A stretch of 64,000 nt of DNA. Source: a virus. The stretch lies in UHGV virus genome UHGV-0293664. One strand, written 5' to 3'. Every line of letters begins with the position of its first letter. Within the stretch, counting starts at the first letter, position 1. Position numbers and translations under genes: made by a program. Below the pieces are notes generated by a model. That model was given only the letters and a program-made list of their open reading frames with translations. It ran no database searches and was not told the DNA's origin. Positions 21,542 through 56,201 of this stretch are shown here, piece by piece.

Positions 21542-21922
21542 ATGGCTAAAGTAGGTAAGCGGGGAAACTACCTGGTGGTATTGACCGAGGAGCCAGAGAA
21601 GGAGTACGAATGCAGCTCCACTTGCGTGATCGATATCCGAGAAAAAGATGTAGATGAAATCTGGTTTGAAATATTAGACGCTTGCGACAGCAGTGATTAT
21701 TTCTTCATCTATGTCAACGATAAGGCTGGGTTCTTCCATGACGACGGAGAGTTGCCGTATGAAATCTATGAACTTGTAGAGGCTTGCCATCGCGGAGATG
21801 CGGAGTTGTTTGGCCTACGGCTGAAAAGCGGTAAATTCTTCTATCAAGATGAGTGCATGAATCTTCATAACTTTGTAGAGGGAACTTGCAACGATGGAGA
21901 GATTTTGGCACACTACGATTAA
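21542..21922 (+). CDS. hypothetical protein
   Basis: 126 aa; SD AAGGGGG. Confidence 0.75.
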   Translation: MAKVGKRGNYLVVLTEEPEKEYECSSTCVIDIREKDVDEIWFEILDACDSSDYFFIYVNDKAGFFHDDGELPYEIYELVEACHRGDAELFGLRLKSGKFFYQDECMNLHNFVEGTCNDGEILAHYD

Positions 21923-27035: not shown

Positions 27036-27373
27036 GTTTGTGGAGAAATATCGTTAACTACGTGTGTGGCAATCCAACCCCTGAAGAGAAGGATGTTGTG
27101 ATTCACGATTTTACTAAAAGATCTCGTGAAAAAGATCTACTGCTAACAAAGGTGACTGATAAAGATCCCGCAGTAGGGGACTGGGCAGGTTTTGCATTTA
27201 CATCGGACAAATACACCTTTAACAAAGGTGACTACCTTGTTGTGGATTTTAACGAAGACATTGAGGGTGCTGAACCTTACTATCAGACCCTTATTGTTGC
27301 AGGGTGTGTTGATCTCTCTGCAGGTATGCACAGTTTGATTCTTTTTGAGCTTGACTCTGAAGACCTTGAGTAG
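27032..27373 (+). CDS. hypothetical protein
   Basis: 113 aa; start overlaps helicase stop. Confidence 0.7.
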   Translation: MSLWRNIVNYVCGNPTPEEKDVVIHDFTKRSREKDLLLTKVTDKDPAVGDWAGFAFTSDKYTFNKGDYLVVDFNEDIEGAEPYYQTLIVAGCVDLSAGMHSLILFELDSEDLE

Positions 27374-27433
27374 TAAGATGTGAGTCTAAAGGGGAGGCAC
27401 TCCTCCCCACAAAAACTAAGGAAGCACTAAACG

Positions 27434-27736
27434 ATGAAACGTTATAAACCATACACTTTTGAAATCGATTTCGAACTTGACGATATGTTTACTGTGGAGG
27501 CTCAGGCAGTTGTCCAGTTGCCAGACCCGGAGTGCCGTGATTCTGATGTTGACTATTACGGATTTAGACAAATTACCGATGTGCATGTTTACCACAACGG
27601 TGAAGAGGTGGACTTCTACAAATTGCCAAACGATATGCGCCACTCAATTTACAAACGTGCAGCCCGTGAACTAGATTCCTATCTGGATGCAGCGACGACA
27701 GCAGCTGCATTTGCCGAAGAAGTGGGAGGTTTCTGA
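27434..27736 (+). CDS. hypothetical protein
   Basis: 100 aa; SD AAGGAAG. Confidence 0.7.
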   Translation: MKRYKPYTFEIDFELDDMFTVEAQAVVQLPDPECRDSDVDYYGFRQITDVHVYHNGEEVDFYKLPNDMRHSIYKRAARELDSYLDAATTAAAFAEEVGGF

Positions 27737-31415: not shown

Positions 31416-32150
31416 ATGAACGAGTTCAGAGATCACTGTGTAGCCAATCACTTGTGGTCAGAGATATTGGAGTATGACGGTCAAAATCTTTTTTGGAAGA
31501 TAGACATTCTGGCAGGTAGCGGTGTAGGATATGTTAAAACTTCAGCAGGCTCTAGAGCTGACAAGGGGCAAGATGCTGATGGCAGGCCTGTGGTCAGTCT
31601 AGGAAAGCATTGCACTAAAGGTGCCCACGTCATAATTTGGGAAATGTTTAACGGTCCTGTACCGGAAGGGTATGAGGTTGACCACATCAAGGAGATAAGA
31701 GAAACAGGTGGTGTGGCTGATAACAGTATTCAAAATTTGCAACTGCTCGAGCCTACAGATAACAAAAAGAAAAGTTGCAAGATACCTCGTAGTAACAACA
31801 AGTCTGGTAGGGTCGGGGTGCACTATTCTGAAGAAAGAGAGGCATGGATAGCTCAAGGCACAGATTCTGCAGGTGAAAGAGTCTGGCTAGGCCAGTACAG
31901 AACTTTTGAAGAGGCAGAGTGGGCAAGAAAGTTCTTCGAAGATAATGGTTTTTCGCACAAGAGTGGAAGAGCCGTGCAGTATAATAACACCAGCGGTTGC
32001 TCAGGGGTGAATTGGGATAAAACCCATGAAAGATGGGTAGCCAGAATTTATGTAGATGGTAAAAGGAAATGCCTTGGGTATTTCAAGAACAGAGAAGATG
32101 CAATAGCTGCAAGAAAGAGTGCTGAGAAGAAACAGGAGGAGACAGTATGA
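31416..32150 (+). CDS. HNH homing endonuclease with AP2-like DNA-binding domains
   Basis: 244 aa; HNH core EVDHIKE...N..NLQLL; two AP2-like repeats (GVHYSEEREAWIAQ..., GVNWDKTHERWVARIYVDGKRKCLGYF). Confidence 0.85.
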   Translation: MNEFRDHCVANHLWSEILEYDGQNLFWKIDILAGSGVGYVKTSAGSRADKGQDADGRPVVSLGKHCTKGAHVIIWEMFNGPVPEGYEVDHIKEIRETGGVADNSIQNLQLLEPTDNKKKSCKIPRSNNKSGRVGVHYSEEREAWIAQGTDSAGERVWLGQYRTFEEAEWARKFFEDNGFSHKSGRAVQYNNTSGCSGVNWDKTHERWVARIYVDGKRKCLGYFKNREDAIAARKSAEKKQEETV

Positions 32151-42545: not shown

Positions 42546-42874
42546 CAGAGATCATCGTTTCAACTGCAGGGTATGTATTCCTGACAATCATTGCGTTGGC
42601 TATTCTGGTGGCGGTGTATGGATTTGTTATCCTGCCTATTCTTGAGACATTTAGTTTGTGTCGGTGTTGGAGAAAAGCTTACGGACCACAACCGTGGAAA
42701 GACTGGTTCCATTTGGTGCGTATAGCGTTCTCTTATGCCTATGACCACTCTAGCAGTGCATGCGTAACTGGGTACCATGCCTACAACTGGAACTGGGAAG
42801 GGCTGGGGAGATGGACTGTTACAAAAACTATACCCTTACGGTTGTACAAAGGAAAGAACACACTGGGAGCCTGA
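42542..42874 (+). CDS. putative membrane protein
   Basis: 110 aa; hydrophobic N-terminal segment; SD AGGGGA. Confidence 0.7.
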   Translation: MTEIIVSTAGYVFLTIIALAILVAVYGFVILPILETFSLCRCWRKAYGPQPWKDWFHLVRIAFSYAYDHSSSACVTGYHAYNWNWEGLGRWTVTKTIPLRLYKGKNTLGA

Positions 42875-43182
42875 TATTTTAAGTTATCAGGTTGCCAGAG
42901 ATCAGGAGGATTTCTAAAATGGATTTCCTCCTTTTGATATTTTACCTGCCAGGATATTTTAAAATCCTTAGAAAATCAGAAAATGGATCGAAAACTAAAA
43001 TGGATTTTTCAGGGCAGGCACGACGAGATGAACCACTCATCCTGTCGTTTGCACCATATTCCAGACCACCATTACAGATTTCCCGCACATGCTTACATCC
43101 TTCTACTGGAACTTCCTCCGCTTGCCCTTGACCTTTTATGGTAATAATCCAACCACTATCTTGAAGTTGCGATGCAGCTTTT

Positions 43183-43372
43183 CAGGTACTCGATCTGTTT
43201 TTCGTTTCAAAGATTGAATTTTCTGAAAATTTTTCTCGATAAATTTCTCAGTACTCGATCTGTTTTTCGTTTTCTGAATCGGATTTTCTGGAAATCGTTC
43301 CGGCTCTCGACCTGAAATTTTTGGGGACGAAATCGATTTTTCGTTTTCAGAAATGGATTTTTAAAATTTCTA
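43183..43372. repeat. degenerate tandem direct repeats (~65-bp unit, about 2.5 copies), iteron-like
   Basis: TACTCGATCTGTTTTTCGTTT at 43187 and 43252, partial third CGATTTTTCGTTTTC at 43333; GATTTTCTG/GAATTTTCTG sub-repeats. Confidence 0.6.
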
Positions 43373-43477
43373 TATGGGAATATTTTATGGGATACTGTTT
43401 TATAGGAAATTGTTACGGAGGGTAATTAGCGTGCTAATTAAATTTATGAAATGCGAGGAGTTCTCATTTAGAATTTT

Positions 43478-43700
43478 GAATGATAATCATTCTCGTTTGC
43501 AGAATAACGGGCACCCCCGGTGATTGTCTCCCGGCCCCTGTTGCCCCGGCTTGTTATTATAGTATCACACAGGACAAAGAAAGCAAGGACTTTTTGCATA
43601 AATTTTTAGACGATAATGATAATCGTTCTCATTTCATGCAGCGCCCATCCCCGGTGGTTGTCTCCCCCGTCACCGGTGCCTGCCGTCCTTTCGATATGTA
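43478..43700. repeat. tandem duplication (~120-bp unit) each carrying a GC-rich box ...CCGGTG(A/G)TTGTCTCCC...
   Basis: Both units start GATAATC.TTCTC.TTTC; boxes at 43510-43550 and 43641-43688. Confidence 0.6.
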
Positions 43701-43838
43701 TATTGTGCCACCTGGCGGGGCCGCTGTCAACACTTTTCAAAAAATTTTTCTAACCTGATGCGCTAACCGTTGCAACCTGGCGGGGCCAGCCTGGCAGGTC
43801 CGCGTTATAAAGTAAACAGCTACGGAAGAGGTACAAAA

Positions 43839-43988
43839 ATGAAAGGTAATGCTACTCGCCTGGAAAATGTAGTAATTGATGATACGGAAGCTATCGCCCT
43901 GGTCGAGAAGGTTGAAACGGAAGCGCGGGAACATAAAGAAGAGTACGAAAAAATGGTAGTTAACCTGGCGGGGGCGATTCTATCATAA
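43839..43988 (+). CDS. small hypothetical protein (49 aa)
   Basis: ATG 43839 after GGAAGAGG; the longer track ORF from 43770 starts inside repeats. Confidence 0.5.
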   Translation: MKGNATRLENVVIDDTEAIALVEKVETEAREHKEEYEKMVVNLAGAILS

Positions 43989-44088
43989 AAATAATTTAAA
44001 ATAATCGTTGACAGCTCGGACAGCTATTGTTATTCTTATCCTCGCAAGGTGAACAACACCACACCAATTAACAGAGAGGATAAAAATC

Positions 44089-44286
44089 ATGAACGCCTAC
44101 GGAATTAAAGTACGTCGCAACACCCGCCAGGTGGTCACCGATCAAATGGTTTGCCGGGTGGATGTAACCATCAACAACGGGCAAGGCCTTTATAAATTTC
44201 GTCGCGGTCATAGCTATACCCTGCAGCAGCTTAATCGTTGCGCCCTGACAAAAGGTCAGATCAACCACTGGTTTAATAAAAAATAA
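44089..44286 (+). CDS. early small protein
   Basis: 65 aa; SD GAGAGGA. Confidence 0.75.
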   Translation: MNAYGIKVRRNTRQVVTDQMVCRVDVTINNGQGLYKFRRGHSYTLQQLNRCALTKGQINHWFNKK

Positions 44287-44289
44287 ATA

Positions 44290-44318
44290 TTGACATGTAG
44301 TCTGAAACAAAATATACT
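44290..44318 (+). promoter_or_regulatory. sigma70-like promoter
   Basis: TTGACA-17 nt-TATACT. Confidence 0.65.
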
Positions 44319-44350
44319 GAAAGCACAAAAGACACTAAGAGGATAAAATC

Positions 44351-44749
44351 ATGAAAACCACAACCTTTAATTTTGACAATGCTAACTTCTCTTTTTCTGA
44401 TGTTAAAAGCTGCCGCCGTGATCGCGGATTCTACAAGGCCTATAATCTGGTTGTCTTGGACGATGATAATAATTTGCACGAAGTAGCGGAGATCCGGTAC
44501 TATGCCGCCGCCAGCGGTAACACTCACTACTGTGTATTTTGGATTCACGACAACAAGAACAATAAGTACGGTTATACTGGCGGCAAGGCGAGCGGTCACG
44601 GTTATGATAAAGCCAACGCTGCACTTGAAAGCGCATTAAGTGCCATGGGAATCACTGCCGACGGCTGGATCTATGAAGAAGAGTTTTTGGCGGCACTTGC
44701 TAACCGCTTGGGCTATAAAAAGCACATTGTAACGTGCGCCCACGAATAA
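44351..44749 (+). CDS. early protein
   Basis: 132 aa; SD AAGAGGA. Confidence 0.75.
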   Translation: MKTTTFNFDNANFSFSDVKSCRRDRGFYKAYNLVVLDDDNNLHEVAEIRYYAAASGNTHYCVFWIHDNKNNKYGYTGGKASGHGYDKANAALESALSAMGITADGWIYEEEFLAALANRLGYKKHIVTCAHE

Positions 44750-44838
44750 AAAAAAAAAATTATTGACACGCTGCAAAATTAAAGTAAACTAGACACAAAA
44801 GGCGGGAATATTTCCCGCCAACACAAAGGAAAAAGATC

Positions 44839-45243
44839 ATGAATAAGAACGTACGCCGCATCATGAACGAGTTGGCAAACGATGAAAAAATTATTGACAT
44901 GCATTTGATCAACATTTGCCGCCGTTGTGTAACATATAACAACCGCGCCGCAAAAGCGCGTGAGATGAACGCAAAAGGTACCTTAAAGCCATTCCAGGTG
45001 GTGGTAAAGGCCATTAAAGATGTAACTAATACGGCAAACCAGGTACAGGGGAACACCAACGAGAGTACCAATATTGATCCGTCTTACGTAATGAAACGGA
45101 TCCGGACTTGCAAGAATAAAGAGCAGGTGTATAACGTCATAGATTGGCTGGACTCCCTGGGTGATGTGGTTTACAATAGGTTTTCTGCAGCTATCGAGAT
45201 CCAGCTTGACAGATTAGACGGGAAAGTACTAAAAACTTATTGA
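44839..45243 (+). CDS. early protein
   Basis: 134 aa; SD AAAGGAAAAAGA; preceded by TTGACA box and GGCGGGAAnnTTCCCGCC leader hairpin. Confidence 0.75.
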   Translation: MNKNVRRIMNELANDEKIIDMHLINICRRCVTYNNRAAKAREMNAKGTLKPFQVVVKAIKDVTNTANQVQGNTNESTNIDPSYVMKRIRTCKNKEQVYNVIDWLDSLGDVVYNRFSAAIEIQLDRLDGKVLKTY

Positions 45244-45290
45244 GTTTATTTTTAGATGGCCTTGACTTCAGGGCCATCAATAAAGTAAAC
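45244..45290 (+). repeat. conserved post-stop hairpin element, copy 1
   Basis: TTTATTTTTAGATGGCCTTGACTTCAGGGCCATCAATAAAGTAAAC; 7-bp stem GATGGCC/GGCCATC. Confidence 0.6.
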
Positions 45291-45323
45291 TAACCACAAT
45301 TGAGCGGAAAAGGAGGCTTAAAG

Positions 45324-45443
45324 ATGAGCACTACACGCCAGCACACAAAGGTAACTATTATCGTTTGCATCATTGGTTACATCCTGGCGCAAATGTTGAT
45401 GAGTAGCGCCAACAGTTTTGCAAAATTTTTCTTAAATTTTTAA
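45324..45443 (+). CDS. possible small hydrophobic peptide (39 aa)
   Basis: ATG after AAGGAGG; MSTTRQHTKVTIIVCIIGYILAQ...; not in ORF track. Confidence 0.45.
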   Translation: MSTTRQHTKVTIIVCIIGYILAQMLMSSANSFAKFFLNF

Positions 45444-45471
45444 TTGACAAGCTAACCCAAATCGGTATACT
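45444..45471 (+). promoter_or_regulatory. sigma70-like promoter
   Basis: TTGACA-16 nt-TATACT. Confidence 0.65.
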
Positions 45472-45522
45472 TAAACACGTAAACGGGAAAACTTCCCAAA
45501 ACACACAAAAGGAGAAAACACC

Positions 45523-45864
45523 ATGACTACTATGACCGCCGAAGAAAAAGCCCTGCAGATCGCCGCTCTGAAAAAACAGATCGCAGACCTTGAGAATAAG
45601 ATCGATAACTTTGAAATCGACGAGGACAAGTACGACGAAAACTATGATGAATGGCTAGACGAGGTTTATGGCGAAATTATGATCGGAAACATTTCTTTTC
45701 TTCCGTCGCGTATCCTCAAGGAGTTAGATCCTATCGCTTACCGCTGCGGATTTAGCGACTACATCGACAGCCTGGATATTGAGGACGATGAAGAGTACCA
45801 AGAATTGCAGACAGAGATTGAAGAAGTGAAAGAAGAGCTTTCAAAGCTGGAAGAAAACGAGTAA
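45523..45864 (+). CDS. early acidic protein
   Basis: 113 aa; SD AAAGGAGAAAA. Confidence 0.75.
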   Translation: MTTMTAEEKALQIAALKKQIADLENKIDNFEIDEDKYDENYDEWLDEVYGEIMIGNISFLPSRILKELDPIAYRCGFSDYIDSLDIEDDEEYQELQTEIEEVKEELSKLEENE

Positions 45865-45912
45865 AATTTATTTTTAGATGGCCTTGACTCCAGGGCCATC
45901 AATAAAGTAAAC
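45865..45912 (+). repeat. conserved post-stop hairpin element, copy 2
   Basis: AAATTTATTTTTAGATGGCCTTGACTCCAGGGCCATCAATAAAGTAAAC. Confidence 0.6.
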
Positions 45913-45954
45913 TTTATACTGTTAACACTGAACTACTGCAAAGGAGTTAAAACC

Positions 45955-46200
45955 ATGGCAGCACTAATCACCAAGTATTATGCCCCTACTAACACCAAAA
46001 GCGCCCGTATCATGGTAAAAGGCTTCGGACGTAAAAAGGTTTACACCTGGGATTATGCCTTAGATACGGAAGACAACTACACCAACGCGATGACCGATTT
46101 TATTAATGAGCTGAACACGCGGATCTTGACAAATTATAAAATTACCGATATTGCCTATATAGGGGAAGGCGGGATCTGTTTTGTCGGTATCGTCAAATAA
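45955..46200 (+). CDS. early protein
   Basis: 81 aa; SD AAAGGAG. Confidence 0.75.
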   Translation: MAALITKYYAPTNTKSARIMVKGFGRKKVYTWDYALDTEDNYTNAMTDFINELNTRILTNYKITDIAYIGEGGICFVGIVK

Positions 46201-46275
46201 ACTATTTTTTCGGTGGTCCTGGCTGCAGGGCCATCTATAAAGATAATTTATTAACACCGTGAAAGGAGAAAGTAC

Positions 46276-46629
46276 ATGATCAGCGGGGCTAGTTTTATTA
46301 TTGGCGCTATTGCTACGGCTTTAATTGTAAACAAGATCCAATCTAAAAACGAAAAAGATAGCAACGCGCTCACAGAATACCCATTTTGGGTATTCAACGA
46401 CAACGAAGACTACATAATCAAGTACAAGAATGAGAAGGGCGACCAGGTAACACCGCGACCGATCCCGGCTTACAAAATGCAAGAAACACTATACCGCCTA
46501 AAGGCTGGAGGCGCAAAAATCGTAGACTTTTGGGGATATGATTGCAAGGATCAGGAGGTTATAAAACGGCGTATCCGGGCGATTCAGGCAAATATCGAGA
46601 TCAGTAAGGGGGGAAGTTATGAAAATTAA
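46276..46629 (+). CDS. early protein with N-terminal hydrophobic segment
   Basis: 117 aa; SD AAAGGAGAAAG. Confidence 0.75.
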   Translation: MISGASFIIGAIATALIVNKIQSKNEKDSNALTEYPFWVFNDNEDYIIKYKNEKGDQVTPRPIPAYKMQETLYRLKAGGAKIVDFWGYDCKDQEVIKRRIRAIQANIEISKGGSYEN

Positions 46630-46816
46630 TTTCGAAAAAATTGTAAAGCGCCCCCACGATTCCGAAGAGCTGCCGGAACGCCGCCAGCGCAACAATAAAC
46701 TGAATAAACCGAAAAGATTTGGGAAGATCTGGCGGAATCATTATGATCGTAAACTGCCTGGCCTACTCTTGGAACGTGAACGACAGGCGGAACGATACCG
46801 CCACAAAGGCAAATAA
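46619..46816 (+). CDS. small basic protein
   Basis: 65 aa; SD AAGGGGGGAAG; overlaps upstream stop. Confidence 0.6.
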   Translation: MKINFEKIVKRPHDSEELPERRQRNNKLNKPKRFGKIWRNHYDRKLPGLLLERERQAERYRHKGK

Positions 46817-46824
46817 CAACCAAC

Positions 46825-46853
46825 GCCCCGCCATTGTGCGGGGCTTTTTATTT
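46825..46853 (+). terminator. intrinsic terminator
   Basis: GCCCCGC-CATTGT-GCGGGGC then TTTTTATTT. Confidence 0.8.
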
Positions 46854-46997
46854 CTATCCTACGAATAGCGCCCCTGGTTGGTCCCACAAACGCCACAAAA
46901 GCCCCTACCTATGCAATCCCCTTTCTTAGTCTGAAAACATCGCCCAGGGCCGTTTTATGGTGTTAAAAATAGCATTGACAGTGATTTTATTTAAAGC

Positions 46998-47026
46998 TTG
47001 ACACCTTGGAATAGCCCAGATATACT
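46998..47026 (+). promoter_or_regulatory. sigma70-like promoter
   Basis: TTGACA-17 nt-TATACT. Confidence 0.65.
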
Positions 47027-47061
47027 AACCACATCAAAGCAAGAAGGAAGGAGTAAACGCC

Positions 47062-47322
47062 ATGCGTAAATTAAAAAATTTTGATAAAGTCGATATTGTC
47101 CTGAATAATTTTTACTACTGCAATAATAAAGCCGTTTGGTGGCGTGATAGTTCCACCGATAAAGTTAAAGCGCGCTTTCTCCAGGGGCACTGGCAAGGCC
47201 GCCCAGTGATTAAGATCCTGGGGCAATCGGTAGCGTTTAAAAATTGCCGCCGTGTTGATGACGTTGAAGAGATTCTAAACATTTTACGCCACAATAATTT
47301 AAAAAATAGTGTTGACAAGTAA
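47062..47322 (+). CDS. early protein
   Basis: 86 aa; SD GAAGGAAGGAG. Confidence 0.75.
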   Translation: MRKLKNFDKVDIVLNNFYYCNNKAVWWRDSSTDKVKARFLQGHWQGRPVIKILGQSVAFKNCRRVDDVEEILNILRHNNLKNSVDK

Positions 47323-47339
47323 ATCTTGATAAGTATACT
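47312..47339 (+). promoter_or_regulatory. sigma70-like promoter
   Basis: TTGACA-16 nt-TATACT; followed by GGCGGGAAAACTTCCCGCC leader hairpin. Confidence 0.65.
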
Positions 47340-47396
47340 TAAACACACAGGCGGGAAAACTTCCCGCCACTAACAAAGAAAATAGGAGAAAATATC

Positions 47397-48020
47397 ATGA
47401 CCACCGTTAACATTACCGCAGGTTACAATTTATCTTTCGACGTGCTGACCGACGAACAAAAAGAAAAAGCTATTGAAATGGTCCGCGAAAGAGAAGAACA
47501 CAGCGGAGAGGATTTTTTCGCAGAAAGTGTAATTGAATATTATAAAGAACAAGTTTTTCCAGAGTACGGCCTTGAAGATACCGAAGTACATTGGTCCGGA
47601 TTTTGGTGTCAAGGCGATGGCGCGTCAATTAGTGCTGAAAATGTAGACTTAGAAAAATTCTTGCGTAAAGTAAAGGCCCTGACCAAGTTCCGATCAATTC
47701 GTCACTTGTTCGGCACAATGCACGATGGCGAGTTATCAGCCAGTATTGAACGCGACAAGTACAGCCATTACAGCCATGAAAACACTGTAAACGGATACAT
47801 TGATACCACCTGGATAAATCTGACCGCCAAACAAGAAAACAAAGTGGAAGACCTGGAAGAGCTGATCACCGAGACGGCACGGGAGCTATCCCGTAAGGTT
47901 TACGTAGACCTGGAGGAGGCCTATCTAGAACAGTTCACTACCGAAAACCTGATCGATCTTATTAAGGCTAATGATTGGCGGTTTGATGTAGATGAACATG
48001 GCGAGATGACTTTTTCATAA
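47397..48020 (+). CDS. early acidic protein
   Basis: 207 aa; SD AAATAGGAGAAAA. Confidence 0.8.
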   Translation: MTTVNITAGYNLSFDVLTDEQKEKAIEMVREREEHSGEDFFAESVIEYYKEQVFPEYGLEDTEVHWSGFWCQGDGASISAENVDLEKFLRKVKALTKFRSIRHLFGTMHDGELSASIERDKYSHYSHENTVNGYIDTTWINLTAKQENKVEDLEELITETARELSRKVYVDLEEAYLEQFTTENLIDLIKANDWRFDVDEHGEMTFS

Positions 48021-48109
48021 ATAAAGTGTTGCAATAACCTAAAAACCTGCTATATTAAAACTCAAGGGGCAAGACGTTTGCCCCCACACAAAACAAAGAG
48101 GAAAACATC

Positions 48110-48490
48110 ATGAAAAACACTACTAAAGCTATTGACACCGTTATGTTTAACCTGGTTACCTTTCGCGAGGATATGAAAGATCTTCCGCGTGAAACAGTGT
48201 GCGACCATATCGAAAACTATCGCAAACTAATCAAAAAGTTGCCTTTAAAACGTGATCAGTATGCGGCTAACGCCATGCTTAATGCCATGATCAAAAAGAT
48301 GATCCAGTGTGATTTAACTCTGGCCTATGATTATGCAGGTGGTCGTTTTGCAGTATACAATCAGCCCGTGCCTGGTATGAGCACCACAGAAGAATTGCAC
48401 GCGTTAAATCTAAAACAAGACGTGTGGGATAGCATGCCTCGCGTGGTGGTATGGGTAGAAAGCGGGAAGATTTACGGCGATAATTTTTAA
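48110..48490 (+). CDS. early protein
   Basis: 126 aa; SD AAAGAGGAAAA. Confidence 0.8.
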   Translation: MKNTTKAIDTVMFNLVTFREDMKDLPRETVCDHIENYRKLIKKLPLKRDQYAANAMLNAMIKKMIQCDLTLAYDYAGGRFAVYNQPVPGMSTTEELHALNLKQDVWDSMPRVVVWVESGKIYGDNF

Positions 48491-48500
48491 TCAGATAACA

Positions 48501-48532
48501 GGCGGCGGCATATTTGCCGCCGCCTTATTGTT
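48501..48532 (+). terminator. intrinsic terminator
   Basis: GGCGGCGGC-ATATTT-GCCGCCGCC then TTATTGTT. Confidence 0.75.
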
Positions 48533-48560
48533 AAACAGAACTGCAAAAGAGGTACATAGA

Positions 48561-48932
48561 ATGGAATTTATTATTTTGGCTGTATTGGTTGCCTTGTTTA
48601 ACGCCTGGATTGCTGGCAAGATGGGCAGATCCGCCTTTTTATGGTTTATTATATCTATTTTCCTGGGGGTGGTTGCAACTATTGTATTGGTTATCCTTGC
48701 AATTGTTGACAAGGGGAATAATAGAAAGGGTAAAGTATTTTCAGACCTGTACGACGCTCAAACGTTTGTCAACGCATATTATAGTGATCTTCCAGTCTCC
48801 CTACGCTGCAGCCTGGCACAACAAGTTTTCGATGAGGCTAAAACCAGAGATCAAGCCCATGAGATATGTTTAACTGAGGCGGATCGCCTATTTGAGAGGA
48901 ATAGAAAATATGTGGGCCAACCGTTTAAATAA
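48561..48932 (+). CDS. membrane protein
   Basis: ATG 48561 after AAAGAGG; two hydrophobic helices. Confidence 0.7.
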   Translation: MEFIILAVLVALFNAWIAGKMGRSAFLWFIISIFLGVVATIVLVILAIVDKGNNRKGKVFSDLYDAQTFVNAYYSDLPVSLRCSLAQQVFDEAKTRDQAHEICLTEADRLFERNRKYVGQPFK

Positions 48933-49155
48933 TGCCACGTTAATTAATCCCTTTAGTGAAGATTTGAAGCCAGCCGCCTGGCGTGATGGATTCAATACCG
49001 AACGCTTTATTTTCAGGCCTGATCTTGAGGAATTTTATAACAATGGATCGAACAACGACAGAGATAATTTTTCTTGTGATGTGCGTGGTGATGGTACTCC
49101 TGGGGGCCATTGTAAACCACGTCACTACTACCAGGGGGAAAGGGGGAGACGATGA
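48910..49155 (+). CDS. hypothetical protein
   Basis: ATG 48910 after GAGAGG; overlaps upstream gene end. Confidence 0.5.
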   Translation: MWANRLNNATLINPFSEDLKPAAWRDGFNTERFIFRPDLEEFYNNGSNNDRDNFSCDVRGDGTPGGHCKPRHYYQGERGRR

Positions 49156-49271
49156 CACCCAAGGATAAGCCACGCACCAATAAGGCGCGCCGTGTTATGG
49201 TGTGGCTGGAGATCATCGCCCTTGAAATATTGCTAGGCGTAGGGATGTACTTTATCGCTGTAAGTAACTAA
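49152..49271 (+). CDS. possible small membrane peptide (39 aa)
   Basis: ATG after GGGGGAGA; MTPKDKPRTNKARRVMVWLEIIALEILLGVGMYFIAV; terminator follows. Confidence 0.45.
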   Translation: MTPKDKPRTNKARRVMVWLEIIALEILLGVGMYFIAVSN

Positions 49272-49275
49272 GAAC

Positions 49276-49303
49276 GGCCCCCCGATCATGGGGGCCTATC
49301 TTT
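49276..49303 (+). terminator. intrinsic terminator-like hairpin
   Basis: GGCCCCC-GATCAT-GGGGGCC then TATCTTT. Confidence 0.55.
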
Positions 49304-49326
49304 AAAAAAATTTTTCTTCCGGGGTG

Positions 49327-49354
49327 TTGCAATCCGGTCCGGAATGTGGATAAT
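49327..49354 (+). promoter_or_regulatory. sigma70-like promoter
   Basis: TTGCAA-16 nt-GATAAT. Confidence 0.55.
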
Positions 49355-49409
49355 AACAATCAACGGGGAGCTAATCCCACCACCACAAAAACCAGAAAGG
49401 AGAAACAAA

Positions 49410-49610
49410 ATGAGCAACAATATCCGCGTTATTAACTTCAAAAAAGAAGAAAAAATTGCCGTGCTGATTGACGGTCAAGAAATCTTCAAGGGCGACTATG
49501 AAGATCATCAAACGGCGATTAGTATCACCCGCGTGATTGGTTACCATAATTTCTACCCCCAAGGTGCTGAGGCAGCAGTTAAACGAATCAAAGAGATTGT
49601 AGGCCTGTAA
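49410..49610 (+). CDS. early small protein
   Basis: ATG 49410 after AAAGGAGAAAC; 66 aa. Confidence 0.7.
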   Translation: MSNNIRVINFKKEEKIAVLIDGQEIFKGDYEDHQTAISITRVIGYHNFYPQGAEAAVKRIKEIVGL

Positions 49611-49658
49611 AATTTATTTTTAGATGGCCTTGACTCCGGGGGCCATCAATAAAGTAAA
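49611..49658 (+). repeat. conserved post-stop hairpin element, copy 3
   Basis: AAATTTATTTTTAGATGGCCTTGACTCCGGGGGCCATCAATAAAGTAAAT. Confidence 0.6.
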
Positions 49659-49702
49659 TTTAAACCCTGTTAAAATAATCAGTGCAAAAAGGAGTAATGA
49701 TC

Positions 49703-50002
49703 ATGTTTATACCCGCCAATAATCTTTATTTCTTTGATGGTCAAATCGTAGACGGCGTGGAAGTTGAGATCACCGGGTGCCCTGGTGGTCAGGCTATGAC
49801 TTTTCGGAATAATGCTTTTGATGATTCTCATATCGTTATGAGAATGGAAGTTACGAAGCTGGACGACAAGAAAACACTTATTGACTATTCTGTGAAAGAT
49901 CATCCAGACTACCGCATGATCCATGGCGATTTGTGCAGTGTTGACCGTGACAAGGTGGGCGGCATTGTGATCGCTATTGTGAACGATGTTTTCTCAAACT
50001 AA
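49703..50002 (+). CDS. early protein
   Basis: ATG 49703 after AAAGGAG; 99 aa. Confidence 0.7.
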   Translation: MFIPANNLYFFDGQIVDGVEVEITGCPGGQAMTFRNNAFDDSHIVMRMEVTKLDDKKTLIDYSVKDHPDYRMIHGDLCSVDRDKVGGIVIAIVNDVFSN

Positions 50003-50019
50003 TTTCAGCAGGTGATTTT

Positions 50020-50370
50020 ATGAAAGTCAAACTATATTACCTTAATGAGCTTAACCCCCTTGCCCAGGTCCGCGCCCTGGCTAATACCTTGATTTGTGAG
50101 AAATCTGCATATTGTGTTGAGCTTAACGCCATGCGTGAACGTCTCAAAGGGGGTTACTTCGACATCCATGCTGCAATCAACGGCCTGAATATGGAATTTA
50201 TACGCTTACGTAACAGCCGCCGGAATCTGGCAAGAATGGAACAAGATCCGGCCCACCTTCGTAAGCTGGTTATTGAAAATCATCTGATGTTTAATGCCGA
50301 GGGTGATTATTACCATTTTCACCGCAAACGCTGGTACCGTGGCGGCAATACAGGCAAGAATGCAAAATAA
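50020..50370 (+). CDS. early protein
   Basis: 116-aa ORF; weak SD. Confidence 0.65.
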   Translation: MKVKLYYLNELNPLAQVRALANTLICEKSAYCVELNAMRERLKGGYFDIHAAINGLNMEFIRLRNSRRNLARMEQDPAHLRKLVIENHLMFNAEGDYYHFHRKRWYRGGNTGKNAK

Positions 50371-50571
50371 GGCCCCAGGCAGGGCCTGCAGCGATATAAT
50401 CACATAAAGGCTATGCGGTTGCATGGCCTTTATTATTTTAGCGTTACAGCGACCCCCAAGGCGCTTAAAAAAATTTTAAAGAAGTACTTGCATCAAGCCC
50501 TACAATATGGATAATAGGACGTGTCGGGGGGCGGCCCCCAATCATTAACCGGATAGATAGGAGTTAAAACC

Positions 50572-50856
50572 ATGGCTATTGTTACCGCTGGCGATGTAGT
50601 AGAAATGGAAGCAAAATACTTAAAAGCGGGTATGCATATCCTACGCAACGATCTTGAACTGGTCCTGACAATGGTTGACTATAACCCAGGGCAAGATTAT
50701 CCAAGTGTTGACTACTTTTTTAGGTATGTTGATGAAGAATTAAAAGAGGATGAGGCTTATCAGGGCGAATTCTGTAATTTCTTTTGCTCTGATGAGGTTG
50801 TAAAAGTTATCTATCAACCTGGCGTACCTTTCCCGTTGCACGCTATCAATAAATAA
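50572..50856 (+). CDS. early protein
   Basis: 94 aa; SD ATAGGAG; TTGCAT-17 nt-ATAATA box upstream. Confidence 0.75.
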   Translation: MAIVTAGDVVEMEAKYLKAGMHILRNDLELVLTMVDYNPGQDYPSVDYFFRYVDEELKEDEAYQGEFCNFFCSDEVVKVIYQPGVPFPLHAINK

Positions 50857-50911
50857 ACCTGGCGGGGCCGAAAAGGCCCCCAATTATGAAAATAAAGAGA
50901 GGTAAATCATC

Positions 50912-51145
50912 ATGATGGAACAAATTAAACGCGCTGAGGCTATTAATGGCAATGTGATCTACTTTGTCAGCAAAAACGAAAAAGGCGTACCATATGCGGC
51001 GGTAATAGTACAGCCTGACGGTGATTATTGGTTTACTGTGTACGGCGCTTATTCTTTCGGGCGTCCGGTGCATGATAGAATTTTGAAAGTAGCGAACCCC
51101 ACCGGGAAGAATATCACGGCAGAAAAATTTTTTGAAAATAATTGA
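50912..51145 (+). CDS. early protein
   Basis: 77 aa; SD AGAGAGG. Confidence 0.75.
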   Translation: MMEQIKRAEAINGNVIYFVSKNEKGVPYAAVIVQPDGDYWFTVYGAYSFGRPVHDRILKVANPTGKNITAEKFFENN

Positions 51146-51169
51146 CAACGTTTTAAATTAGTTTAAGAT
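51142..51169 (+). promoter_or_regulatory. sigma70-like promoter
   Basis: TTGACA-16 nt-TAAGAT then conserved GTATCACGTAGGG start region. Confidence 0.6.
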
Positions 51170-51226
51170 GTATCACGTAGGGGAGACAAGCGCCCTATTA
51201 AACGCAACAGGAAGAGGATAAACACC

Positions 51227-51466
51227 ATGAAAAGCAATAAAGGTTATAACGGTTACAAAAACAAAACTCATTGGAATGTAAGCCTTTGGATTAATAACGA
51301 TGAGTCATTGTACCGGTTGGCCCAAGGCTTTATCAACGCTAATGCTAATCGTAATGATGCGGCGCGGGATATGATGCTTTTTCTGGAGCTAACCGGACAA
51401 GATAAGACCCCGGACGGCTTCAAGTACAGCACTACGGCGATCCGTGCCGCGATGGTTGGAATGTGA
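51227..51466 (+). CDS. early protein
   Basis: 79 aa; SD GAAGAGGA. Confidence 0.75.
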   Translation: MKSNKGYNGYKNKTHWNVSLWINNDESLYRLAQGFINANANRNDAARDMMLFLELTGQDKTPDGFKYSTTAIRAAMVGM

Positions 51467-51475
51467 TAAAATAGC

Positions 51476-51503
51476 TTGACACTGTTTTTTATTCTGGTAT
51501 AGT
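51476..51503 (+). promoter_or_regulatory. sigma70-like promoter
   Basis: TTGACA-16 nt-TATAGT. Confidence 0.6.
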
Positions 51504-51645
51504 TTATCACATAGGACGGCACGACAGAGTACTACGGATTCGAGGGTGTCCGGTGCGGTGAACTTGCTCGCGACCTTAAGGAAGATCCAGACCTGGAAGA
51601 TCTGCCCATCACCGTAAACGGGAAAACTTACGTAAACCGTTAACC

Positions 51646-51780
51646 ATGAGAAAGATAATCATCACCTTGGGGATTGTGGCGGGATCGCTGGCGCTCTTTC
51701 CCCTTATGGTTAGATATGTGCTGATCAGTATTGTCCTGATAGTTAGTGATTTATTGGAAACGGTTGGCACCTTGTTTTAA
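51646..51780 (+). CDS. possible small membrane peptide (44 aa)
   Basis: MRKIIITLGIVAGSLALFPLMVRYVLISIVLIV...; no clear SD; not in ORF track. Confidence 0.3.
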   Translation: MRKIIITLGIVAGSLALFPLMVRYVLISIVLIVSDLLETVGTLF

Positions 51781-51792
51781 AGAGCGGTAAAA

Positions 51793-51984
51793 ATGAATAT
51801 CGAACAAGTTAGAAAGGTATTGGCGGTACTGCGTTATCATAATCATAGAAAGGTCATAGACGATCCTGATTATGTCGATTCAAGCCTGGAAGGGGATACA
51901 CTACAAGCCATAAGCAACATGCAAGAATTGCTAAAGCGCATGACAGAGAAAAACAGATCTGATTATATAGGTGACGAGATCTAA
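51793..51984 (+). CDS. early small protein
   Basis: 63-aa ORF; weak SD. Confidence 0.6.
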   Translation: MNIEQVRKVLAVLRYHNHRKVIDDPDYVDSSLEGDTLQAISNMQELLKRMTEKNRSDYIGDEI

Positions 51985-51990
51985 AATAGC

Positions 51991-52018
51991 TTGCACAATG
52001 TATCTGATAGTGTAAGAT
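51991..52018 (+). promoter_or_regulatory. sigma70-like promoter
   Basis: TTGCAC-16 nt-TAAGAT then GTATCACGTAGGG as at 51170. Confidence 0.6.
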
Positions 52019-52068
52019 GTATCACGTAGGGCGGCAATAGTGCCGCTCACAACTGGAAGGAAAACACC

Positions 52069-52272
52069 ATGACTACAGCTAACCGCCTGATCGCCGTCCT
52101 GAACAAAGCAAAGGCTAACCGCCTGGATGTTCAAATCAAAGAGCAAGCAAATGGCGAGATCCTTGCTACGGTGTCCGATGGCGGTTATGTATCGGAATCA
52201 TTTTTATCAGGGAGCTTAGATCATCTTGTTTGGAAATTAGAAATTATCGTGGAGGATATGCAGATCATCTAA
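52069..52272 (+). CDS. early small protein
   Basis: 67 aa; SD GGAAGGAAAA; terminator-like hairpin follows. Confidence 0.75.
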   Translation: MTTANRLIAVLNKAKANRLDVQIKEQANGEILATVSDGGYVSESFLSGSLDHLVWKLEIIVEDMQII

Positions 52273-52326
52273 TCTTTACAAAACAGGGCTTGTTTTTATC
52301 CTGTTTTTTGTTATACTTGTTTCACG

Positions 52327-52372
52327 GCAGGCACCTGGCGACGGGGGGAGACAATCACCGTGGGTGCCTGTC
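52327..52372 (-). repeat. inverted copy of the GC-rich box found at 43510 and 43641
   Basis: GGGGGGAGACAATCACCGTGGG is the reverse complement of CCACGGTGATTGTCTCCCC-type box; flanked by CAGGCACC/GGTGCCTG. Confidence 0.6.
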
Positions 52373-52476
52373 ATGTAAGAACTATAAAAACCGTTGACAT
52401 CTGCCAGGGGGTGGGGTAACATTTATCTTGAAGGGGCAAAAGTGCCCACACAACAACCAGAAGAGAGGAAAACATT

Positions 52477-52749
52477 ATGTCAAGCTGGATTAATCAAGAA
52501 GTCGAATCACGTTTTAATGCTATTTGGGATCTCATCGAAAAAGAGGACGGAACATCAAGCCCCTACCTCAACAATTTGGAATTCCATTTTGTGGAAGCGA
52601 TGAACGCAGAACATGATCACGAAGGTGGTGCGGATGAATTCGCTAAAGGATATGGCTTCAACAATGCCAACGAAATGATCGAGGCGGTTGTACTCCAGGC
52701 TGAGGAAGATTATCAATTAAAAACGCTTGAATTCTGCCGCCGTAAGTAA
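52477..52749 (+). CDS. early protein
   Basis: 90 aa; SD AGAGAGGAAAA. Confidence 0.75.
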   Translation: MSSWINQEVESRFNAIWDLIEKEDGTSSPYLNNLEFHFVEAMNAEHDHEGGADEFAKGYGFNNANEMIEAVVLQAEEDYQLKTLEFCRRK

Positions 52750-52811
52750 TAAGATAATGACACGGGCCAAAAGGCCCACTAAACAAAAACCACATAAAGA
52801 GGAAAAACATC

Positions 52812-53075
52812 ATGAAACGCCTTGATCAGCTCAAATTAGTTCAATATATGGCTTATCGTGTTCTTGAAGTCCAGAAAGGTAGCAAAAAAGAGGTTTGCGA
52901 GAAAGCTTATAAGATCTTCACTCGCAAAAAAGATGACTGGATGCTACGCCAGACCAAAAAGGCTGACATCTTGGGGTACCTGGAAGAAGAGATCCGACTT
53001 GAAGAGCAAGAAGAGATCCGCCGTAGTGAGGCAGATTATCAGGCCGCTTGGGAAAACTGGATGAGCAACAAATAA
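52812..53075 (+). CDS. early protein
   Basis: 87 aa; SD AAAGAGGAAAAA. Confidence 0.75.
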   Translation: MKRLDQLKLVQYMAYRVLEVQKGSKKEVCEKAYKIFTRKKDDWMLRQTKKADILGYLEEEIRLEEQEEIRRSEADYQAAWENWMSNK

Positions 53076-53140
53076 TACAACAAGGTGCACGGTCAGGGGC
53101 TTAAAGCCCCTTGATCACATAAAAATTATGCTATCCCTGG

Positions 53141-53169
53141 TTGACAGGGATCGGCAGTTTTGCTATATT
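53141..53169 (+). promoter_or_regulatory. sigma70-like promoter
   Basis: TTGACA-17 nt-TATATT; -35 embedded in CCCTGG...CAGGG inverted repeat. Confidence 0.6.
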
Positions 53170-53218
53170 CTTTTTTGAAGGGAAGTTGTAAGAAAATTAA
53201 CTAAGAGGTAAAAACACC

Positions 53219-53638
53219 ATGAACATTAAATCTAATAATCCGGCATATAGCTTTGATAACGCTTTTTGTCACGGTCCGGCGGCGAAAGGATTCGAAATCG
53301 ATGGTAAACTAATTATTGTCAATGTTGACGGGGAAGAGGTTGCAGTATATCCGGTGGCAGACGTAAAAAGCCGTTTACAATGCCGCATGGATGTTACCGC
53401 CTATCAGCTTGATCCGGTCCGCATAGTTGCCCTGGTCCTGGAGGAAGAAATTAAAGCCATGCACCATAGCAACAGGTTTATTGGTGACGCTCAGGATAAT
53501 ATGAAGGTGTGCCGCCATAAAGTTAATGAAGTGCTTAAAGAGTACGGCTATAAGGATTTAATGATCAAGCGTGATGAAAAATTCCGCTACCGTAACGACC
53601 TGGCAAATCGGATTTTTGAAATATACGAATCATTATAA
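53219..53638 (+). CDS. early protein
   Basis: 139 aa; SD TAAGAGG. Confidence 0.8.
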   Translation: MNIKSNNPAYSFDNAFCHGPAAKGFEIDGKLIIVNVDGEEVAVYPVADVKSRLQCRMDVTAYQLDPVRIVALVLEEEIKAMHHSNRFIGDAQDNMKVCRHKVNEVLKEYGYKDLMIKRDEKFRYRNDLANRIFEIYESL

Positions 53639-53656
53639 TTTCTTAACTGAATTATC

Positions 53657-53685: not shown

Positions 53686-56201
53686 CTGCTCTTCTCCTAC
53701 CATAAACGGCCCTACCTGGCAAGTGGAATAATTGACTAGCCATCAATCCCACACACTGTACAAATATACATGGAAAATAACTATTGCATAATTTTTCATT
53801 GTGTGGTAGCAAGTCCATTTTTACCCGTTTTCTCTCCCAAAATTGCACGTAATGCCGCTATTGCACAAATTTTAACCTGATGCACATCTCCAATATCTTG
53901 TCAACAACTAAAAATCTTTATAAGTCATACACTTACACAGCATCGAAAGCGTGTTCTACGCGAAAAATCGAGTATAACTATAGCCGCCAGATCTCAGAAT
54001 TCACGTACGCACACCATTCTATAGTCCGCTAAGTATTTATTCCAACCACAGAATAACGGAATAGTCAATACCTGTACAAAATAATTATTCGTATAAACTG
54101 CATAACATAAACCTGTCCAGGTGTCAACATTTTTCGTAAACAGTCTGAAATTGTCACGATAGGTTACTATAATCAGAGAAATCTTTAGTCGTCTAATGTT
54201 TACTGCACATAACTATACTGACTGGAATCATTAGATGACTAATAGAAAGATAAGAAATAGTTAACAATGTAATTGTTTTACCTGTAACAATAAGGCAACT
54301 ATGCAAACGAATGTCATGGCGCGACGGAGTCGCGACATAATATAAAAGCAGTAACCATCACCCCCGTGATAGTTTGTCTGCAAACTATTAATCAGATCAT
54401 AGTTGCCTTGTATTTAGTTAATCATGACATAACAAGCAAGGCAACTATAGATCTGCTAATAGTTGCCCTGCTTTTATATTATGTCATATATTATTAACCT
54501 GTTAATTGTCAGCTTGTTGGATGTTAGCTTGTCAATTATTAACTTGCTAATTGTTTTCATGCAAACGAATGTCATGGCTGATTATTTCTATGTAAATGGT
54601 TTGTTCGTAAACAGTTTATTCGGGAACAGTTTATTCGGGAACAGTGAGGCATGCAATAGTAACAATTGTTATTGTATCCAGTGTGTTGAGTATGCCCAGT
54701 GTGTCCAGTATGTCAGACAAGTTTTTCCTCTCTTTGTCAAGTGCCGCATTAAAAATTTACAAACTGGTATGGTAGCATTTTTGCGGCCCTGTTTACATTC
54801 AGCAGTGTATGTATAACCCTTGTTGTGTGGGCGTTTAGACGTCTAGACGGTTGGAAGTCTACAGGTCAATATCTAATCTATTGGCTGCTAACTATATCCC
54901 ACACAAATAGTAAGAAATATGATTGTTATATGCGTAAACTGTAACTCATGTTATCAATCCCTGTATGTATCGCCAGTGGTTCGCATAATGGGTATTATGT
55001 TAAATTGCCAGTAATGATAACGATTCTCACAATGATAGGTATTCTCATTCATCCACACAAAATAGTTTGCAAATGTTGTGCCACTGTGTGAACGGCCTGG
55101 CCTATTAATTTCTCTCACTGCCTCGATATTTGAGAATTGTTATAAGAATGAGAAGTATTCCCATTCCGTCCGCCTGGCAGCGCTCCTGTAGGTCCTGCAA
55201 GGACTCTAGCTGAAAGCTAGACCCTTCGGGCCTCCCTGTAGGTCAGGTCAAAATCGTGGTAGAATTGGGCCTGTTCAGATATTTCTGGCTGACTCTTCAG
55301 GTCTGTGTGGGAAAAGCCAACCTCTCCGGCGGGGCAGGGGGTCATGACGGTAAAATTGCAGGTCAATTAAAAAATTTACGTGGTGTATGAAGCGCTCTTC
55401 AGGTAAGGCAGGTATTATGGGATGAAACCCTCTTCAGGCAATGATATTTGTGGGTGTGATATTTGCTGGAAAGCCAGATATGACGGGACTCCCGGCGGGG
55501 CAGGGGTAGTACAGACAGGGGAAATATGGGGGATGTGGTTGGGGAAATTGATCAGGCAGGAAGAGTATGGAATATGTTACAGATATGTTAAATATGAAGG
55601 TAGGATATTTGTAGGATTTGTGTGTAAAATCAAAGACTTAAGTGGTGTTGTGGTATTTTCTATAAATAATTCAAGTTTAATAGGCAATATTTGTCTCTAT
55701 CCGCTTTGTGTGGTAAACAGATTCAGATGAGATTGGTTTACAGGTGTATACATAATATACAAATTAAAGATACAAGAAACCCCCCTCCCCCTTCGGCTAC
55801 CATTCACCTTTTCCTCTGACTGGTACTTAAACACTTATTCAGACTCTTCAGGTTATCACCCATATATCATATGGCAGTGACTGGTGTCCTCCGGCCCCTC
55901 TTTCGTCACCCGTCCGCTTCGCCATGCTAATGCCATAGCCAAATGTTCGGTTGTTCACCCTGTTCACTCAGGTGTATCTCCATACCCCTTCAAACCGAAG
56001 AGAACAGAAAACCCGAATTACTCGGTAAAAGAAAAGAGAAGAACTTAATTTTATCAGGATAGGCAAGAATGTCAAGGCATGACTGCTCACTAAACAAGCA
56101 AACAGTCATGTGTGGGAGGTAAGTGATTGTGGTGGTAGGAAATTTAGTTGAAAGATGTGTTATAGGTGCTCCAGCACTTTATCCAGGCAGCTAATTGTGT
56201 G
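53686..56201. other. 2.5-kb non-coding, AT-rich, repeat- and palindrome-rich region at convergence of plus and minus transcription
   Basis: No convincing ORF; direct repeats, large inverted repeats and tetraloop hairpins (see findings). Confidence 0.7.

Follow-up and report, generated by a model that had tools for sequence, protein, structure and literature searches.

Two kinds of described elements are among the closest to the sequence analysed here. T4-type phages reportedly carry, in their hyperplastic regions, repeated regulatory cassettes that Arbiol, Comeau, Krisch and colleagues in 2010 called promoter-early stem-loops (PeSLs). The stem-loops that stabilise messenger RNA (mRNA), such as the 5' hairpin of ompA and the 3' barriers of the REP (repetitive extragenic palindrome) type, are defined by structure. 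Both kinds resemble, in part, a GC-rich 13-nucleotide (nt) box, ACCTGGCGGGGCC, that recurs in the early region of the UHGV virus genome UHGV-0293664, of which we analysed a stretch of 64,000 nt (hereafter, the window). We favour, tentatively and with a probability of about 0.4, an interpretation in which the GC-rich stem-loops found in leaders and between cistrons of the early region re-use the box as an arm or flank, and in which it has spread among regulatory cassettes at indel-prone junctions.

The window comes from an rV5-like myovirus of E. coli (Vequintavirus), with 90-94% identity to phages slur16, Gotham, FFH2 and FV3. The box sits within, and at the proximal edge of, the early cluster of about 25 small plus-strand genes (43840-53640), each of which has sigma-70-like promoters in a promoter scan. 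The 13-mer occurs exactly at 43710 (box 1), 43775 (box 2) and 50857 (box 4), and with one mismatch at 43963 (box 3), always on the plus (sense) strand. Expressed in 12-nt units, CCTGGCGGGGCC is found at 43711-43722, 43776-43787 and 50858-50869, and CCTGGCGGGGGCG at 43964-43976; the 12-mer that includes the preceding A, ACCTGGCGGGGC, likewise has three exact copies and one copy with a single mismatch, all on the plus strand. These positions, as well as that of a CCTGGCG word at 52334-52340, agree with a preliminary description of the sequence, which had also named a frequency no higher than expected from local composition as the outcome that would undermine the motif. The frequency is far above expectation: with up to two mismatches allowed, there are 9 matches compared with 2.4 ± 1.5 in shuffled sequences, and none of 100 shuffles reached 9. 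Markov models of order 1 to 4, trained on the early region with the boxes masked, predict 0.0005-0.009 copies (0.009 at the fourth order), so the recurrence is not due to local composition. The box is among the few 12-mers with at least three copies in the window and, besides a family of 60-nt hairpin and promoter cassettes, the sole GC-rich one. The recurrence is, thus, real and non-random. In slur16, of which about 135 kb was reconstructed from four pieces, the box is confined to three orthologous sites in the early region, along with degenerate copies. Among the genomes examined at each site, a small and closely related sample, the exact box is present in 8 of 12 for box 1, 10 of 13 for box 2 and 6 of 8 for box 4. 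Conservation across the genus is assessed on 13 GenBank genomes of Vequintavirus because a scan of the IMG/VR database with a 15-mer taken from the interval that separates boxes 1 and 2 yielded unrelated chance matches only.

The four copies are found in four different contexts: box 1 fills a minus-strand promoter spacer, box 2 provides the 5' side of a predicted hairpin in a leader, box 3 is near the 3' end of a small open reading frame (ORF), and box 4 belongs to a predicted hairpin directly behind a stop codon; the placement given in the preliminary description, promoter-proximal or 3'-flanking, is loosely right but glosses over this diversity. Boxes 2 and 4 would each supply the 5' arm, with its flank, of a hairpin in a leader or between cistrons. 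Box 2 (43775-43787) is predicted to pair with CCTGGCAGG in a plus-strand hairpin (43775-43799; centroid energy, -15.5 kcal/mol), situated 41 nt 5' of the start (ATG at 43840) of the first early ORF. Changes that keep or strengthen this hairpin are found in two relatives. In phage pangalan, a G>A change converts a G-U pair of box 2 into A-U, and in MiataMamis two changes yield a perfect palindrome, GCCTGGC-GGG-GCCAGGC. Box 4 (50857-50869; with its hairpin, 50857-50880, plus strand) begins directly after the stop codon of ORF 50572-50856, and contributes its GGGGCC half as the 5' arm of the predicted hairpin GGGGCC-GAAAA-GGCCCC (50864-50880) in the leader of ORF 50912-51145. In Gotham, the last nine bases of box 4, GGCGGGGCC, pair with GGCCCCCGCC to form a 9-bp stem with one bulged C (-19.7 kcal/mol), and none of 200 shuffled sequences folds as stably. 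On the minus strand, this Gotham element reads as the 9-bp stem, AGG and then UUUAUUUAUU, an arrangement that appears terminator-like. The orthologous leaders of ORF 50912-51145 in four other phage lineages, represented by phi92, phAPEC8-like phages, LTH01 and jumbo phages, and by name in phi92, phAPEC8_ev052, LTH01, slurp01 and ECP26, contain a GC hairpin in the same place with different stems, for example, GGCGGGAA...TTCCCGCC or GGGGAGC...CCCC; thus, the position and the structure are conserved but the sequence is not.

Box 3, ACCTGGCGGGGGC (43963-43975, plus strand, one mismatch), is located inside the small ORF 43840-43988, where it is read as ..V N L A G A.. among the last of its 49 codons, 13 nt ahead of the stop codon (43986-43988); the -35 element of a strong promoter, TTGACA at 44008, follows 33 nt downstream. 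Its frequent G>A variant in the relatives is synonymous (GCG>GCA). Box 3 would form a hairpin in the relatives and would have lost its pairing partner in the window, and box 1 would have been taken up into a conserved divergent promoter as its GC-rich spacer. That promoter is a sigma-70-like sequence on the minus strand, detected in the promoter scan, TTGACA(43730)-N17-CACAAT(43702) with TG before the -10 element (43702-43730), which is directed into a region of Fur-box-like palindromes and hairpins; box 1 (43710-43722, plus strand) fills its 17-nt spacer. The promoter hexamers are constant in the 13 Vequintavirus genomes, except for one -10 base in RudolfGeigy. Homologous minus-strand promoters with other GC-rich spacers are TTGACG-N17-CATAAT in CR8 and TTGACG-N18-TATACT in CB7 (both Certrevirus) and TTGCAA-N17-TATAGT in SSE121 (Seunavirus), those of CB7 and SSE121 being taken from an alignment. 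Two further promoter assignments were rejected: a sigma-54 promoter (TGGCAC-N5-TTGC) around boxes 1 and 2 is missing the -12 element, and a role of the box as the spacer next to the -35 element of a plus-strand promoter fits one copy in the relatives (TTGTAA-N17-TATAGG) and none in the window.

In the comparison of the 13 genomes, boxes 2, 3 and 4 are each followed, directly on the 3' side, by indels or replaced sequence. Large indels start immediately downstream of box 2, with a different gene between this box and the next promoter in MiataMamis, and the tract that follows box 3 is indel-prone. Because the copies occupy such indel-prone module junctions, we propose that the identical 13-mer is one hairpin arm that would have been spread and maintained among regulatory cassettes by short-homology recombination, and not the mark of a dedicated DNA-binding protein or a methylation switch. 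The hairpins would act as RNA, most plausibly shielding early mRNA segments from 5'-end-dependent and 3'-exonucleolytic decay; read from the opposite strand, they may also halt antisense transcription. Two further repeat families indicate that the region multiplies modules of this type. One is the 60-nt cassette family of the window, with four copies (45232-45291, 45854-45913, 46189-46248 and 49600-49659), in which a hairpin (GATGGCC...GGCCATC) encloses a TTGACT -35 element and is followed by ATAAAGTAAACT; the copy at 46189 has CCTGGCT instead of CTTGACT. The other is a GC box of CR8's own, CCCGCCGGGCCG, which recurs on the sense strand in five copies. Moreover, most of the early leaders in the window contain a short GC hairpin between the -10 element and the Shine-Dalgarno sequence. 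At the boxes themselves, we found no intrinsic terminator on the plus strand, where the tails are A-rich and a U tract is missing. Four other GC hairpins in leaders or after stop codons (44801-44819, 47350-47368, 48065-48085 and 50370-50387) resemble canonical intrinsic terminators with a U tract when read on the minus strand, and these might block antisense transcription from the convergent minus-strand genes beyond 56 kb.

Compared with PeSLs, the similarity would lie in short repeats with a stem-loop, here predicted at boxes 2 and 4, and sigma-70 early promoters, situated between small ORFan genes of a virulent myovirus, and in the location at junctions where the gene content of relatives differs, which for the box are the indels and replacements 3' of boxes 2, 3 and 4. 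The 60-nt cassette family matches the PeSL definition well. The box itself differs in that it is 13 nt long, compared with the 50-100 nt of a PeSL cassette, a promoter follows box 3 alone (that at 44008), and one copy lies in the spacer of an opposite-strand promoter; homology to the PeSLs of T4 is not expected. The likeness to mRNA stabilisers is that the hairpin is GC-rich, has no U tract and lies upstream of the Shine-Dalgarno sequence, after the transcription start or the preceding stop codon; for box 4, five phage lineages keep a hairpin at this position of the orthologous leader, with differing stem sequences. The known elements, however, share structure and no common 13-mer, and a stabilising role of the box is proposed by analogy. 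In Rfam 15, the window has no match at the gathering threshold, and searches with 42800-44100 and five related loci at E values up to 5 returned chance-level matches only.

Several observations weigh against a re-used stem-loop arm. The folding z-scores in the window are weak (0.26 for the box 2 hairpin and -1.8 for box 4, with a fold of -14.3 kcal/mol), box 1 has no stable fold on either strand, and box 3 is located in coding sequence. The pairing register also differs in the window, box 2 pairing via CCTGGCGGG and box 4 via GGGGCC. Furthermore, structure alone gives no reason for an exact match of 13 nt, and identical sequence between unrelated flanks is more often a sign of sequence-specific recognition; finally, recombination on 13 nt of homology is inefficient.

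Such recognition is the core of an alternative that we consider unlikely, namely, that a host protein or an early or middle protein of the phage recognises the box sequence specifically, as DNA or as sense RNA; this factor would work at a small number of places in the early region, for example, in early shut-off or in transcript processing. Three exact 13-mers within otherwise unrelated flanks, copies kept at orthologous sites across the genus, and a strictly sense-strand orientation speak for such a factor; CCTGGC itself occurs 15 times in the sense and twice in the antisense orientation in the early region, which is as asymmetric as TTGACA and the ribosome-binding-site words. The anatomy of the copies, however, fits poorly with a protein-binding site on DNA as envisaged in the preliminary description. 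The 13-mer is asymmetric, with neither dyad nor tandem symmetry, its position is not constant relative to the approximately 20 early promoters or to gene starts, only about 2 of these 20 promoters are near a box, and the contexts are of four kinds, so that neither the symmetry nor the fixed promoter position of a transcription-factor operator is found. In the relatives, point changes strike the core of the box while the adjacent promoter hexamers stay invariant, and no candidate binding protein was identified.

The boxes might, alternatively, have no function and be what small duplications and joints of illegitimate recombination have left behind in a hyperplastic region of host-like GC-rich words (CCTGG, TGGCG, GGCGG), which we regard as improbable. 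Words that make up the box are indeed over-used in the early region (CCTGGC, 15 vs 1.0; TGGCGG, 12 vs 1.0), only 65 nt separate boxes 1 and 2, which have 17 nt in common, the contexts are heterogeneous and the adjacent sequence is rich in indels. This word excess nevertheless does not account for the exact recurrence because the fourth-order model of the region still expects only 0.009 copies. The similarity also ends abruptly at the edges of the box, whereas relic duplications should leave decaying similarity in the flanks, and three of the four copies occupy orthologous positions in nearly all relatives examined. The CCTGGCG word at 52334 belongs to an inverted copy of a GC-rich two-tier hairpin element (52326-52372, plus strand; fold -26 kcal/mol, z -2.25), and because the homologous element of CR8 reads CCTGATG where the window has CCTGGCG, this word is not conserved and probably bears only a partial resemblance to the box.

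Every box contains CCTGG, as noted in the preliminary description, that is, a site of the Dcm/EcoRII type (CCWGG), and this site could be the relevant unit. On this account, which seems quite unlikely to us, the early region would be selected for dense host methylation sites, of which the boxes would be the densest and most conserved instances, and the difference in methylation between the incoming and the replicated genome would modulate early expression or protect the DNA that enters first. For the region as a whole, the remark on CCWGG in the preliminary description is borne out better than expected: CCWGG occurs 53 times between 42 and 54 kb, compared with 16.4 ± 4.1 in dinucleotide shuffles, an approximately 3-fold enrichment, and the rest of the window is not enriched. 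The density of 4.8 sites per kb contrasts with 1.5-1.8 elsewhere in the window and is twice the 2.3 of a 50-kb sample of E. coli K-12. When codons were shuffled synonymously, with the protein sequence and codon usage retained, the early genes (43840-53640) showed 35 sites vs 14.3 ± 3.3, and the replication genes (17855-42900) 29 vs 33.4. The first base is C in 50% of the NCWGG words of the early region and in 16% of those of the replication region. A genome-wide count in slur16 shows a similar regional enrichment, and so do the early genes of CR8, a member of the distant genus Certrevirus, where the enrichment is accompanied by a GATC excess (104 vs 60.8) and is missing from the upstream neighbours. 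Codon usage was rejected as the cause of the CCTGG excess, given that the CTG share of leucine codons is 0.28 in the early and 0.27 in the replication genes and that the excess survives synonymous shuffling.

Against methylation sites as the relevant unit, the excess at synonymous sites consists mostly of sense-strand CCTGG (26 vs 8.3), with CCAGG at 9 vs 5.8, which is unexpected for a palindromic DNA site. At the same sites, GATC is also over-represented (64 vs 41.5) and CTAG under-represented (3 vs 11.2), and CR8 follows this trend. In slur16, the GATC density is not peculiar to the early region. The tetranucleotide signature of the early region is host-like overall (correlation of 0.65 with E. 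coli vs 0.27-0.34 with the rest of the phage, the other parts of which intercorrelate at 0.85-0.92), so that the CCWGG richness may be one facet of general composition. The box differs from a Dcm site in being 13 nt long and asymmetric, and the CCWGG core is not its conserved part: box 1 is altered in 4 of the 13 genomes (CCCGG, CCTAG, CCTGT and one deletion), the core of box 3 becomes CCTAG in relatives, and changes in the CCTGG/GGGG core are as frequent as elsewhere in the box. The link to a C5-methyltransferase-like gene that the preliminary description had suggested found no backing, as no C5-methyltransferase Pfam domain was detected among the 20 largest ORFs of the window; the annotation of slur16 lists adenine methyltransferases only. 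The host Dcm enzyme could still act on the CCWGG sites of the boxes. As for other DNA signals, identity with Chi or with KOPS (FtsK-orienting polar sequences) is rejected: the RecBCD Chi site GCTGGTGG was not found in the early region, and the box differs from it at 2 of 8 positions.

Separate from the recurring box, 80-230 nt away from box 1, are palindromes that resemble the binding site of the iron regulator Fur. The Fur-box consensus of Xanthomonas is a 9-1-9 palindrome, AATGAgAATcATTctCATT (PMC1790865). Palindromes that match this consensus at 15-17 of 18 positions are found in the window at 43450-43468, 43479-43497, 43615-43633, 55013-55031, 55031-55049 and 55147-55165, and the segment 43612-43630 matches the E. 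coli Fur consensus that we used, GATAATGATAATCATTATC, at 17 of 19 positions. These are predicted Fur boxes, judged by their match to consensus. The two clusters bracket the early region, and CR8 has four palindromes in tandem. In the IMG/VR database, more than 120 contigs of widely differing types contain the exact 19-mer palindrome, which is frequently located a short way upstream of sigma-70 promoters.

The palindromes at 43479 and 43615 are each followed by a GC-rich two-tier hairpin with a conserved loop, GGTGWTTGTCTC (43500-43555 and 43640-43690, plus strand), of which the inverted copy at 52326-52372 is the counterpart near the distal edge of the early cluster. The same arrangement is found in CR8 (locus L148), with a hairpin at 11142-11196, an inverted one at 21787-21829 and a Fur box at 21861-21881. 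In the orientation reading GGGAGACAAUCACC, a -10-like element precedes every hairpin copy. The palindrome and the hairpin are kept in Phapecoctavirus, Mydovirus, Seunavirus and Certrevirus, that is, with Vequintavirus, in at least five genera. When the hairpin next to the Fur boxes was aligned plainly with MAFFT, RNAalifold detected no consensus structure on either strand, so a structure-guided alignment was needed: a covariance model (Infernal) recovers the hairpin in 20 places, with compensatory changes in 7 of the 13 pairs of the structure-fitted alignment, where 84.6% of the cells are paired compared with 22-54% when the partners are slid. The counts of G-U and A-C pairs, 12 and 17, reveal no strand preference. 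The Fur box and hairpin unit is duplicated in tandem over 136 nt (43479-43614 and 43615-43750); AlexBoehm has the unit only once, and its deletion falls exactly between the repeats. The annotations of Gotham, JES2013, FV3 and RudolfGeigy list ORF 43480-43758 as a hypothetical protein; this ORF is probably spurious, considering that it spans the duplication, which AlexBoehm lacks and the length of which is not a multiple of 3. A small ORF starting from the hairpin loop (GTG after GGAGA) was also rejected, with the start codon lost in SSE121 and an intervening stop in ESCO13. Our literature search found no published description of Fur-box and hairpin modules or of related early-region features. 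In Phapecoctavirus, Mydovirus, Seunavirus and Certrevirus, the module is followed by a highly conserved block of about 90 nt, CTACCGGCGATCCACCTTCCGACC...GCCCCGCCTTTTCGCCGTGGGGTGGCG (loci L007-L011; for example, L010 of CR8, 1340-1436), which lies between plus- and minus-strand promoters, has no Rfam match and is missing from the window.

The proximal palindromes and hairpins are located in an ORF-free gap of 965 nt (42875-43839), which is probably the 'non-coding' box of the rV5 genome paper. The gap opens with a terminator-like hairpin near 42905-42945, after which come three iteron-like repeats of about 50 nt, two of them with GATC (43186-43375), then the Fur boxes, the hairpins and the divergent promoters. 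The corresponding region of CR8 is organised in the same way, with iterons of its own. A replication origin and a DNA-entry stop signal are both possibilities for the gap.

A broader alternative, to which we give only a slim chance, makes the 13-mer a sequence-specific signal within a larger, undescribed early-region organisation of Vequintavirinae that would couple early expression to host iron, via Fur, and to the methylation status of incoming versus replicated DNA, this organisation being an approximately 10-kb host-like block with the 3-fold CCWGG excess at synonymous positions, the Fur-box and covarying-hairpin module at its proximal side and the inverted copy near its distal edge, an arrangement of the module copies common to Vequintavirus and Certrevirus.

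The remainder of the window, mapped by Pfam matches and ORF layout, consists of tail-fibre genes (1-10.4 kb), a minus-strand block (up to 17.7 kb) and a plus-strand replication module that encodes a PIF1 helicase, a DnaB-like primase-helicase, an HNH-AP2 endonuclease and PolA (17.8-41 kb); the early cluster ends approximately at the position that matches the terminal repeat of Gotham. The HNH endonuclease with an AP2 DNA-binding domain is encoded between the primase-helicase and PolA genes (31416-32150; 27035-27736 is also listed). A gene of about 1.3 kb annotated as 'adenine methyltransferase', located between the PIF1 helicase and primase-helicase genes of slur16, is missing from the window. 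Among the early genes, 52477-52749 has homologues with 68-79% nucleotide identity in 19 E. coli chromosomes, presumably in prophages, and 50912-51145 corresponds to rV5 gp170 and phi92 gp247 and is common to Stephanstirmvirinae, the jumbo Asteriusvirus phages and others. The wide sharing of the latter gene indicates that early genes are exchanged widely. An origin of the early region from E. coli DNA was rejected, as chromosomal homologues were found for one early gene only, 52477-52749, in 19 of 5426 genomes.

Taken by itself, the box carries little weight: it adds one more repeated, hairpin-associated module to the early-region regulatory cassettes of large virulent phages, and it marks sites of sequence gain and loss in rV5-like genomes. 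The surroundings offer testable leads. The excess of Dcm sites, which survives synonymous-codon controls in two genera, is one such lead on the host-takeover region of the rV5-like phages, a therapeutically popular group, and a second is the tetranucleotide signature, which resembles that of E. coli more than that of the remaining phage sequence. A further testable lead is the combination of Fur-box palindromes with a covarying hairpin, present in at least five genera within an ORF-free gap of about 1 kb that the genome papers left unexplained.

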